A stretch of 64,000 nt of DNA, from contig OZ241976.1 of NCBI GenBank assembly GCA_965204205.1, positions 1,935,293-1,999,292 on the forward strand, read 5' to 3'. Below, piece by piece: positions 35,692 to 37,745 of this stretch. Each line of letters opens with the position of its first letter. Within the stretch, counting starts at the first letter, position 1. The notes under the pieces are model-generated. The model was not told where the DNA came from, made no database searches, and saw only the letters and a program-made list of their open reading frames with translations. Source of the stretch: an uncultured Candidatus Binatia bacterium (GTDB lineage: Bacteria > Desulfobacterota > Binatia > UBA9968 > JAJDTQ01). The position numbers and the translations under genes are program-made.

Positions 35692-36189
35692 TCAATCCCG
35701 TTCCCGGAGGGTGGCGAAGAAACGCTTCAGGATTTCCCCGCACCGTTCCCCCAGCACGCCTTCGGTCACGTCCACGCGATGGTTCAGGCGCGGATCGTCG
35801 CAGACCCGGTAGAGCGACCTCACGGCGCCGCCCTTGGGGTCCGGGCACCCGAACACCAGGCGCCGGACGCGGGCCTGGACGATGGCGCCGGCGCACATGA
35901 CGCAGGGTTCCAGGGTGACGTAGAGCGTGCAGTCGTCGAGCCGCCAGGACGTTCGCGTCCCCACCGCCTCCCTGATGGCCAGGATCTCCGCATGGCTCGT
36001 GGGGTCCGCCAGGGTTTCGCGCCGGTTGTGTCCGCGGCCGATCACTTCACCGTCGCATACCACCACCGCCCCGACAGGGACCTCTTCCTCCCTACGCGCC
36101 GCCTCGGCCTCGGCCAGCGCCCGCGCCATGAACGCCTCGTCGTCCCGCTCGGACGCCTGGTCCGCCACCGGAGTGTCCCCTCTGTTCAT
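35692..36189 (-). CDS. tadA: tRNA adenosine(34) deaminase
   Basis: EVPVGAV, DPTSHAE, VTLEPCVMCAGA, DPKGGA, RLNH. Confidence 0.93.
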   Translation of the reverse strand: MNRGDTPVADQASERDDEAFMARALAEAEAARREEEVPVGAVVVCDGEVIGRGHNRRETLADPTSHAEILAIREAVGTRTSWRLDDCTLYVTLEPCVMCAGAIVQARVRRLVFGCPDPKGGAVRSLYRVCDDPRLNHRVDVTEGVLGERCGEILKRFFATLRERD

Positions 36190-36224
36190 CCGGACATCAC
36201 GGGTCTTGTGTCGATGAGGTTCCG

Positions 36225-36692
36225 CTACGCCAGCTCCGCCAGGTCGTCGAGCACCTCCCGGGCGTGCTGCTCGGGCTTCACCTTCTCGTAGATCCTGGCG
36301 ATCTTGCCCTTGGGGTCGATGAGGAACGACATCCGGTACGTGCCCTCGTACTCCCTGCCCATGAACTTCTTCAATCCCCAGACGTCGTAAAGCCTCACCA
36401 CCTCCTTCTCCTCGTCGGCCAGCAACGGGTAGGGGAGCTGGTGCTTCTCGGCGAACTTGGCGTGGCTCTTGACCGGGTCGATGCTGATTCCCAAGACCGT
36501 GGCCCTGGCCTTTTCGAATTCGGCTATGTGGTCCCGCATACCGCGGGCCTCCTTGGTTCAGCCGGGGGTGGCGTCCTTGGGATAGAAGAACAGCAGCACC
36601 CACTTCCCCTGGTAGGCGGAGAGCTCGTGGAGTTGGCCGTGCTGATCCATCAGCCGGAAATCCGGCGCGTCGTCACCGGGCTTGTGCTTCAT
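36225..36692 (-). CDS. bcp: BCP/PrxQ peroxiredoxin with in-frame UGA at the peroxidatic residue (probable selenoprotein)
   Basis: Single frame of 155 codons plus stop: FFYPKDATPG-UGA-TKEARGMRD...; UGA at 36558-36560; SECIS-like hairpin downstream. Confidence 0.88.
36530..36549 (-). promoter_or_regulatory. Putative bacterial SECIS element
   Basis: GGCCCGC-GGUAU-GCGGG-A-CC stem-loop; G-initiated apical loop begins 16 nt after the UGA. Confidence 0.7.
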
Positions 36693-36831
36693 GGGTCGGG
36701 TTCCTTCCGGTCGCGTGTTCCCGGATGTTCTACAATGGCAGGCGGGCCGATGCCAAGCAGGCGGCGGCCGGTACGACCGGCTTGACACCACGGCGCGCCG
36801 GAGAGCAAAATCCGCATGTCCGCCGACGGCA

Positions 36832-36877
36832 CCCTTCGACGAGTTCGGGACAGGCGTAGCGAAGCGGAGTCGAAGGG
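36832..36877. repeat. Variant copy of the CCCTTCGAC...GTCGAAGGG dispersed hairpin repeat
   Basis: GCGTAGCGAAGCGGAGTCGAAGGG matches the reverse complement of the 18638 copy with 2 mismatches. Confidence 0.55.
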
Positions 36878-36947
36878 CCCGGACAGAGTCTTTCAACAAC
36901 CTGCCGAGGCGATGGGGGCTATTCGGACCGGAACGGGAGGAACTCGG

Positions 36948-37745
36948 ATGGAGATCGTACACAAGCCGCGAAGCTACGGCGAGCATACCGACCATTGGCT
37001 CGATTTCGAGGAGAGTCCTCGGCGCCTTCGGGTAAAATTCGGCGGCGAAACCCTCGTGGACACGAAACGCGCGATGCTGCTGCGGGAGGCGGGACACGTC
37101 CCGGTCTACTACTTTCCGCCGGACGACGTTCGCATGGAGTTCCTGACGCCCAGCGACCACCACACCCGCTGCTCCGTCAAGGGCGAGGCTTCCTACTGGG
37201 ACGTGTCCGCCGGAGGAAAGACGGCCGAGTCGGCCGCCTGGAGCTACGTCGACCCCCTGGCGCAGTCCCGGGATATCGCCGGGTACCTCTCCTTCTACTG
37301 GAACCGCATGGACGCCTGGTACGAGGAGGAGGACGAGATCTTCGTCCATGCCCGGGACCCCTACAAGCGGGTAGACGTGCTTCGGAGCTCCCGCCACGTG
37401 CAGGTGACCGTGGGCGGCGAGGTGGCGGCCGATTCCCGGCGGCCGCGGCTGGTGCTCGAGACCGGTCACCTGATCCGCTACTACCTGCCGCGGGAGGACG
37501 TGCGCACCGACCTGCTGGAGCCCAGCGACACCCGAACCCGCTGCCCCTACAAGGGGAGCGCCAACTACTGGTCGGTGAACGTCGGGGGCAAGACCTTCGA
37601 GGACACGGTCTGGAGCTACGAGGAGCCCATCCCCGAGTGCCCGAAGATCAAGGACCTGATGTGCTTCTTCAACGAAAGGGTGGACGCCATCCACGTGGAC
37701 GGCGAGCGGCTGGAGATCCCCAGGACCAAGTGGTCCCGGAAGTAG
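36948..37745 (+). CDS. Tandem DUF427 domain protein
   Basis: Two repeats of YY.P..DVR...L.PS...T.C..KG.A.YW; GGAGG RBS. Confidence 0.9.
   Translation: MEIVHKPRSYGEHTDHWLDFEESPRRLRVKFGGETLVDTKRAMLLREAGHVPVYYFPPDDVRMEFLTPSDHHTRCSVKGEASYWDVSAGGKTAESAAWSYVDPLAQSRDIAGYLSFYWNRMDAWYEEEDEIFVHARDPYKRVDVLRSSRHVQVTVGGEVAADSRRPRLVLETGHLIRYYLPREDVRTDLLEPSDTRTRCPYKGSANYWSVNVGGKTFEDTVWSYEEPIPECPKIKDLMCFFNERVDAIHVDGERLEIPRTKWSRK

Follow-up and report, generated by a model that had tools for sequence, protein, structure and literature searches.

Peroxiredoxins that carry selenocysteine (Sec) in a TxxU motif (PF00578/COG1225, the latter being the Bcp group) constitute a classical and abundant family of bacterial selenoproteins that has been described since 2005. 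In the literature, 43 such genes are recorded under COG1225 in the Sargasso Sea data set (PMC1088965), 253 under pfam00578 in the Global Ocean Sampling (GOS) data (PMC2398784) and 12 in complete genomes, with five inferred conversions of cysteine (Cys) to Sec (PMC1794560), and Sec-peroxiredoxins are listed with a PxxxTxxU motif in a 2026 review (PMC13188914). Here, we describe a further member of this family, a prxQ gene on the minus strand of a 64,000-nucleotide (nt) stretch of DNA (the whole of which is hereafter called the window) from an uncultured Candidatus Binatia bacterium (contig OZ241976.1, positions 1,935,293 to 1,999,292). The gene very probably encodes a peroxiredoxin of the PrxQ/bacterioferritin comigratory protein (BCP) type with Sec as its peroxidatic residue, and sequence comparison indicates that its apparent stop codon, a TGA, almost certainly encodes Sec. 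The novelty implied by a first-pass annotation of this DNA is not supported, as Sec-peroxiredoxins with a TxxU motif are long known from the literature (PMC1088965, PMC1794560, PMC2398784, PMC13188914) and loss of the Cys five residues downstream of the peroxidatic position (+5) is common (52 of 79 sampled Sec-forms).

The locus shares with the bacterial TxxU family an AhpC-TSA fold with a UGA in place of the peroxidatic Cys codon, a 3' stem-loop with an apical G and abundant Cys homologs. It differs from the family at large in encoding arginine (Arg) at +5 and from the described members in its lineage, an uncultured genus with relatives among metagenome-assembled genomes (MAGs) that bear the label Candidatus Binatia or Thermodesulfobacteriota. 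Furthermore, the loop in the window's genus is GUA or GGUAU at 15-16 nt after the UGA, whereas a GUU loop at 17 nt is found in 35 of the 79 Sec-forms sampled, and the usual Gly-Phe at +6/+7 is replaced by Ser-Ile or Gly-Met. PrxU of Eubacterium (Peptoclostridium) acidaminophilum, which was reportedly the first Sec-peroxiredoxin to be demonstrated biochemically (in 2001, by Sohling and co-workers), likewise has Sec at the peroxidatic position but belongs to another peroxiredoxin subfamily, as the window protein does not reach the cut-off of the PrxU equivalog model NF040737 (61.1 bits vs 270). The fold and the PxxxTPG-C/U-T motif are those of Escherichia coli Bcp, plant PrxQ and Xanthomonas BCP (5iph, 3gkk). 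In contrast to E. coli Bcp and plant PrxQ, which have their resolving Cys at +5 from the peroxidatic Cys, the window protein has Sec in place of Cys and Arg at +5, and the position of the resolving Cys in helix alpha-3 of Xanthomonas BCP is occupied by alanine. 1-Cys BCPs and Sec-glutathione peroxidase operate with a single redox chalcogen, the oxidised form of which is resolved by an external thiol, and by analogy the window protein may follow the same route; 1-Cys BCPs, however, use sulfur, and glutathione peroxidase belongs to another thioredoxin-fold family with a UxxT motif.

The prxQ gene comprises a single frame of 155 codons from ATG (36692-36690) to TAG (36227-36225) with exactly one in-frame stop, the TGA of codon 45 (36560-36558). 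With TGA translated as U, the product reads ...WVLLFFYPKDATPG-U-TKEARGMRDHIAEF... and contains zero Cys among its 155 residues. The protein matches PF00578 (AhpC-TSA, E=1.3e-42) with residues 5-133 over profile positions 1-123 of 124 and, with U scored as C, exceeds the cut-off of NCBIfam model NF006960 (thioredoxin-dependent thiol peroxidase, Bcp) with 173.3 vs 140 bits, whereas it remains below that of the Deinococcus PrxQ model NF053650 (151.2 vs 260 bits). Its best matches among solved structures are bacterioferritin comigratory proteins (5iph, E=3.5e-29, 132 residues aligned), and the TGA column coincides with the peroxidatic Cys of their TPGCT motif. The resulting T-P-G-U conforms to TxxU, and the PxxxTxxC/U motif and the conserved Arg are intact, with P38, T42 and R120 invariant in all 23 genus sequences described below and U45 in the Cys column. 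Arg120 lies in a GT-Y/H-R-M/T-SF motif and is presumably the conserved catalytic Arg of peroxiredoxins.

Orthologs were identified in 22 of 24 genomes of the same genus (E<=1e-20, 76-92% protein identity), and every match contains a single TGA; the two genomes without a prxQ match are 93% and 76% complete. PGUT occupies one column in all 23 sequences (the window gene and its 22 orthologs), none of which contains any other disruption. Averaged over the 253 pairs, dN/dS was 0.188 upstream of the TGA (codons 1-44) and 0.153 downstream of it (codons 46-152), and purifying selection on both flanks implies that both halves are kept as protein. A sequencing error or gene decay is thus excluded by the conserved TGA together with the dN/dS values on either side of it. 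When 80 homolog loci were drawn more widely, the same column contained TGA in 11, all of which belong to this genus-level group, and TGC or TGT in the remaining 69. Re-reading of the sequence reproduced the coordinates, the frame, the single TGA and the Cys-free product given in the first-pass annotation, its placement of the UGA exactly at the peroxidatic Cys is matched both by the TPGCT of BCPs and by all 69 Cys-form loci, and the alternation of Cys and UGA that it proposed to look for among homologs is seen on the alignment, as is the absence of the error or decay that it named as grounds for refutation.

Bacterial selenocysteine insertion sequence (SECIS) elements are described as stem-loops that immediately follow the UGA and carry a G in a small apical loop (PMC9312934, PMC1088965). 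The hairpin at 36530-36549 has this form: the UGA is followed by an 8-nt spacer (ACCAAGGA), the 5' arm GGCCCGC (36549-36543), the loop GGUAU (36542-36538) and the 3' arm GCGGG-A-CC (36537-36530), in agreement with the sequence and position reported earlier. It is the minimum-free-energy (MFE) structure of a 47-nt stretch, and the first G of its loop is the 16th nt after the UGA. The distance rule for bacterial SECIS elements is 16-37 nt, and the loop G and U are the bases contacted by SelB in the E. coli fdhF element; both are invariant across the orthologs, most of which have a GUA triloop. Over the seven stem pairs, pairing was standard in 154 of 154 cells (22 distinct rows of the 23-sequence alignment), and shifting the 3' partner by 1-3 columns reduced this value to 6-46%. 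Pair 30-36, present as U-A in 16 rows, C-G in five and U-G in one, is the sole compensatory pair, while pairs 26-40 and 28-38 vary from C-G to U-G only. Conservation of the hairpin among close relatives, on which the first-pass annotation had let its selenoprotein claim depend, was thus borne out, as all changes are compensatory or wobble-compatible.

Codon choice also speaks for the hairpin. The 12 segments of ten codons with the lowest synonymous divergence (pS) all lie inside codons 35-57 (pS 0.13-0.17 vs 0.40 elsewhere), and the loop codons are AGT in 21 of 21 sequences with Ser at codon 51 and ATA in 16 of 16 with Ile at codon 52, although AGT and ATA account for just 4% of Ser and 8% of Ile codons, respectively, in the long open reading frames (ORFs) of the window's genome. 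As a control, the 15 codons after the UGA were recoded synonymously according to genome codon usage (9,200 recodings) and scored for a hairpin with a stem of >=6 bp and a loop of 3-8 nt that starts 14-24 nt after the UGA and has a G in its first two bases. This hairpin criterion was satisfied by 19 of 23 native sequences compared to ~6% of the recodings.

The genome containing the window (4.79 Mb, 65.8% G+C) encodes a complete Sec system, and all four components that had been suggested for a genome search (selA, selB, selD and tRNA-Sec) are present above their cut-offs. The tRNA-Sec gene (C1:2205985-2206075) scored 73.1 bits vs a gathering score of 47 and was called by ARAGORN as tRNA-SeC with anticodon tca. 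The genes selA (589.7 bits), selB (370.3 bits) and selD (372.9 bits) are adjacent at C1:3834722-3839188, and selD (C1:3838262-3839188), which directly follows selA and selB, itself contains one in-frame TGA in an AAG-U-AAK motif. Furthermore, selA exceeded its cut-off in all 24 congeners, and it did so in 39 of the 41 relatives that were searched.

A second peroxiredoxin-like gene, 38% identical to the window protein, was observed in the same genome (C1:1552496-1552909, locus L041). It contains one in-frame TGA (locus position 1621) at the peroxidatic position (AFYPLDFTGG-U-RQEL), 21 nt 3' of which an 11-bp hairpin begins, and probably is another selenoprotein.

Several results weigh against reading codon 45 of prxQ as Sec. 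The folding energy of the hairpin is unexceptional, both for 47 nt (z=-0.81, 36 of 200 shuffles as good) and for 71 nt (z=0.06, 101 of 200 shuffles), its mean z relative to the synonymous recodings is just -0.70, and four of the 23 orthologs have another MFE fold for a 48-nt stretch. True compensatory change occurs in one stem pair only, among 23 sequences that are close kin, and the hairpin criterion was defined after the hairpin had been seen. No SECIS match was obtained in an Rfam scan of 36200-36750 (E up to 10), a collection of curated families in which bacterial SECIS elements are poorly covered, and the support for Sec as a whole comes from sequence comparison; an RNA run was absent from the sequencing runs listed for the stretch. 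The hairpin is real by evolutionary conservation and not by folding energy. Two further structures were rejected: a snoRNA match in the Rfam scan is due to chance (11 bits vs a gathering score of 38), and an outer helix including the UGA region (columns 9-14 with 47-52), although part of the MFE structure obtained for the window gene, is only 88.6% paired across the orthologs and shows no compensatory change.

We infer Sec insertion, binding of SelB to the hairpin, the reductant and the peroxidase activity from these comparisons. The hairpin 8 nt 3' of UGA-45 would act as a bacterial SECIS that recruits SelB and Sec-tRNA(Sec), and the UGA would be decoded as Sec. In a site formed by P38, T42, U45 and R120, the selenolate would reduce a hydroperoxide and be converted to a selenenic acid, which would be resolved via a mixed selenenylsulfide by a thiol from outside the protein, be it thioredoxin, a small thiol or a glutaredoxin-like protein. 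Recycling would have to use such an external thiol, as the protein lacks any Cys.

Alternatively, the UGA could be read through without Sec, either by a near-cognate Trp or Cys tRNA or by a lineage-specific reassignment, with the hairpin functioning as a read-through stimulator. This is very improbable. The identity of the inserted residue is not proven by the sequence, and the register of the hairpin, with its loop 15-16 nt after the UGA, is unlike the commonest Sec-PrxQ design, in which a GUU triloop is found at 17 nt; the genome, however, contains a complete Sec system, in which selD likewise has an in-frame UGA, the UGA of prxQ falls exactly on the redox-Cys position of homologs, the G and U of the loop do not vary, and TGA is an ordinary stop in other ORFs of the window. 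That the TGA is a true stop, be it in a pseudogene, through an assembly or sequencing error or between two small genes (44 aa, and 104 aa starting from AUG-52), is hardly credible, for although the public gene calls consist of exactly these two fragments and an AAGGAGG located 4 nt downstream of the UGA and 8 nt upstream of AUG-52 (36538-36554, minus strand) resembles, together with this AUG, a ribosome-binding site and start, the TGA is retained without other disruption in all 23 sequences at 76-92% protein identity, both halves are under purifying selection (dN/dS 0.19 and 0.15), codon 52 is ATG in only four of 23 orthologs (ATA in 16, TTG in two, CTA in one), the full active site is in neither fragment (P38, T42 and U45 upstream, R120 downstream), and two assemblies of public runs, possibly the source of the same DNA, span the stretch without a single difference. 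The variants at positions 36545 and 36571 in assembled reads represent short pieces of peroxiredoxin genes of other organisms, and no variant at 36558-36560 was present among the matches listed for the assemblies of public runs.

The first-pass annotation had expected standard gene callers to mis-annotate prxQ, and in the public gene calls it is indeed split into a 44-aa and a 104-aa piece. The resemblance of AAGGAGG and AUG-52 to a start site accounts for the C-terminal 104-aa piece being called as a gene, and this piece belongs to a cluster comprising 54 fragments (85-109 aa), some of which are named 'peroxiredoxin Q/BCP'. No full-length close relative with >70% identity was present in the protein database, which is expected if gene callers cut Sec-forms. 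In public calls this gene is split in two, as are its orthologs in at least 22 related genomes; all should be merged and marked as selenoproteins.

In place of a resolving Cys at +5, the window gene has CGC (36545-36543), which encodes Arg, as noted in the first-pass annotation. The alternative resolving position in helix alpha-3 is Ala ('KFAEKH' vs 'NFCAKQ' of Xanthomonas BCP), and the atypical 2-Cys arrangement, in which the resolving Cys is located at +5 from the peroxidatic Cys or in helix alpha-3, is thus absent from the window protein. At the sequence level, its earlier description as a 1-Sec peroxiredoxin lacking an intramolecular resolving residue holds, as there is no Cys at +5, in alpha-3 or elsewhere. 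Within the genus, codon 50 is CGT in 13 sequences, CGC in five and TGT in five, so that 18 of 23 encode Arg and five Cys, with nothing else observed, whereas the neighbouring codons 47, 51 and 52 each encode two to three different residues. All three bases of codon 50 are in the 5' arm of the hairpin. As the 3' arm is set by the codons of the conserved Arg53-Asp54, only YGY codons (Arg, Cys) keep the pairing of codon 50, and a change from UGY to CGY converts a U-G wobble to a C-G pair. In the gene tree of the genus, 12 of 25 inner branches are open; the best tree has four to five Cys/Arg changes, of which supported branches force one. Because of this poor resolution, switches between Cys and Arg are not countable, which weighs against a coupling between SECIS stem and +5 residue.

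The genome collection was scanned for Sec-forms with the motif FYP-xxx-TPG-TGA-T-x-E and for Cys-forms with the same motif containing TGY. From each scan, 80 loci of >=119 matching stretches were drawn (Sec-forms from many phyla, L133-L212; Cys-forms, L252-L331), and 79 with >=80 open codons downstream were kept, one short locus being dropped from each set. G+C was alike in both sets (0.56 in Sec-forms, 0.54 in Cys-forms). The residue at +5 was Cys in 27/79 Sec-forms and 47/79 Cys-forms, Arg in 20/79 and 1/79, Ser in 17/79 and 0/79, and another residue in 15/79 and 31/79, respectively; Arg or Ser was therefore found in 37/79 Sec-forms vs 1/79 Cys-forms. Sequences with no Cys downstream of the active site numbered 26/79 among Sec-forms and 6/79 among Cys-forms. 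The hairpin criterion was satisfied by 53/79 Sec-forms compared to 5/79 Cys-forms, an independent control indicating that such hairpins mark Sec-forms, and a GUU triloop located 17 nt 3' of the UGA occurred in Sec-forms alone (0/79 Cys-forms).

Of the 32 Cys-forms that lack the +5 Cys, 21 carry one at +54, a position occupied in E. coli Bcp by its non-catalytic third Cys, and six have no other downstream Cys. One Sec-PrxQ (locus L181, UTTEGRGFRD), of a type otherwise found in environmental Deltaproteobacteria-like MAGs, comes from a contig assigned to a Klebsiella pneumoniae MAG, an assignment that may reflect a binning or labelling error.

In the common SECIS design of the Sec-forms (35/79), the stem is written by the codons for Ala/Gly-x-Gly-Phe-Arg-Asp-Ala, and base 1 of the +5 codon is opposite the G of the Asp codon, forming a U-G pair with Cys and a C-G pair with Arg. 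Ser (UCC) at +5 yields an all-Watson-Crick stem in a shifted register. Arg was encoded at +5 in 17 of the 48 Sec-forms in which the +5 codon lies wholly within a hairpin arm, compared to three of the 31 others. We tentatively propose, at somewhat short of even odds, that the resolving Cys is dispensable in Sec-PrxQ and that the SECIS stem decides what replaces it, recurrently in several phyla and with toggling in the window's genus. A peroxidatic Sec would make the resolving Cys dispensable, and with the +5 codon in the 5' arm of the SECIS opposite the Arg-Asp codons, only UGY, CGY or, in the shifted register, UCC would keep the stem.

The link between the SECIS stem and the replacement of Cys by Arg or Ser is suggestive but unproven. 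In a FastTree phylogeny of all 158 proteins, for which both trait columns had been masked, 11 independent Sec/Cys pairs were identified on supported branches; in ~4 of these the Sec member alone has Arg or Ser, the reverse occurs in none, and seven are equal (median sign-test p 0.125). Since the rows are non-independent and this contrast is underpowered, we put SECIS-channelled replacement forward as a hypothesis. The +5 Cys is also missing from Sec-forms with a more distal SECIS, which have N, K, I or Q instead; this likewise argues against the hypothesis, and such forms may simply descend from Cys-forms that never had a Cys at +5. A 'pre-adapted hairpin', according to which the EAC-GFRD peptide would be inherently SECIS-like, was rejected, as just four of 48 Cys-forms with FRD at +7 to +9 satisfied the hairpin criterion and none of the 48 had a GUU triloop.

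The contending explanation is that selection at the protein level favours Arg at +5, for example through stabilisation of the selenolate or selenenate or docking of the reductant, or that this Arg is a neutral lineage marker, and that the SECIS stem is irrelevant to the choice of residue. Consistent with this, Arg recurs at +5 in several Sec-PrxQ subgroups (UTIEARGFRD, UTTEGRGFRD, UTLEARGFRD) and in 3/31 Sec-forms whose +5 codon is outside the hairpin arm, and the controlled contrast of Sec/Cys pairs was not significant. We nevertheless regard it as less likely than not, as codon 50 in the genus is confined to the stem-keeping codons CGY and UGU while codons 47, 51 and 52 vary, Arg at +5 is found in a single one of the 79 Cys-forms, and the Ser replacements are mostly UCC or UCG (14/17), which give the all-Watson-Crick stem in the shifted register.

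Knowledge of how Sec-peroxiredoxins are encoded is unchanged by this locus, which amounts to a sound correction of annotation and extends the use of Sec-peroxiredoxins to an uncultured Binatia-like genus. The only part that may be new is that Sec-forms have repeatedly lost the resolving Cys, possibly in connection with the SECIS stem; our literature search, with most subscription journals outside its coverage, found no report on loss of the +5 or resolving Cys in Sec-PrxQ or on Sec-peroxiredoxins in Binatia. With Sec and Cys at +5 in five species and Sec and Arg in 18, the genus provides a natural pair in which the worth of a resolving residue in the presence of selenium can be addressed. If the link to the SECIS stem is true, it would represent a clean case of an RNA signal in a coding region constraining protein evolution, in which replacement of a residue of the catalytic cycle is driven by the overlapping signal.

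Table 1. Features of the prxQ locus and its surroundings (window coordinates).
Feature	Position	Strand	Basis or remark
prxQ/bcp coding sequence, 155 codons + TAG	36225..36692	-	Translation with TGA=U; Pfam, NCBIfam and PDB matches
UGA codon 45, very probably Sec, in the peroxidatic position (TPG-U-T)	36558..36560	-	Aligned with Cys of TPGCT
SECIS-like hairpin, 7-bp stem, one bulged A, GGUAU loop	36530..36549	-	MFE structure and ortholog pairing
Codon 50 (CGC, Arg), +5 from UGA, all 3 bases in 5' arm	36543..36545	-	Pairs 28-38, 29-37, 30-36
Pro38 of PxxxTxxC/U motif	36579..36581	-	CCC in 23/23 orthologs
Thr42, active-site motif	36567..36569	-	Thr in 23/23 orthologs
Arg120 in GT-Y/H-R-M/T-SF	36333..36335	-	Arg in 23/23 orthologs
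Shine-Dalgarno-like GGAAGGAA, 8 nt 5' of ATG	36701..36708	-	Read from sequence, putative
tadA-like cytidine/adenosine deaminase gene	35692..36189	-	dCMP_cyt_deam_1, E=2.5e-33
Sigma-70-like match (TTGACA, 18 nt, CAAAAT)	36782..36811	+
DUF427 gene, two domains	36816..37745	+	E=2.3e-70

The neighbours of prxQ (Table 1) include an MmgE/PrpD gene, and no thioredoxin- or glutaredoxin-like partner adjoining prxQ was found among the neighbouring genes. The tadA-like deaminase gene starts 35 nt after the prxQ stop, no terminator-like site was found between the two genes, and they may be co-transcribed. Upstream of prxQ, a divergent gene encodes two DUF427 domains, and the intergenic region shared by both genes contains a sigma-70-like match on the plus strand.

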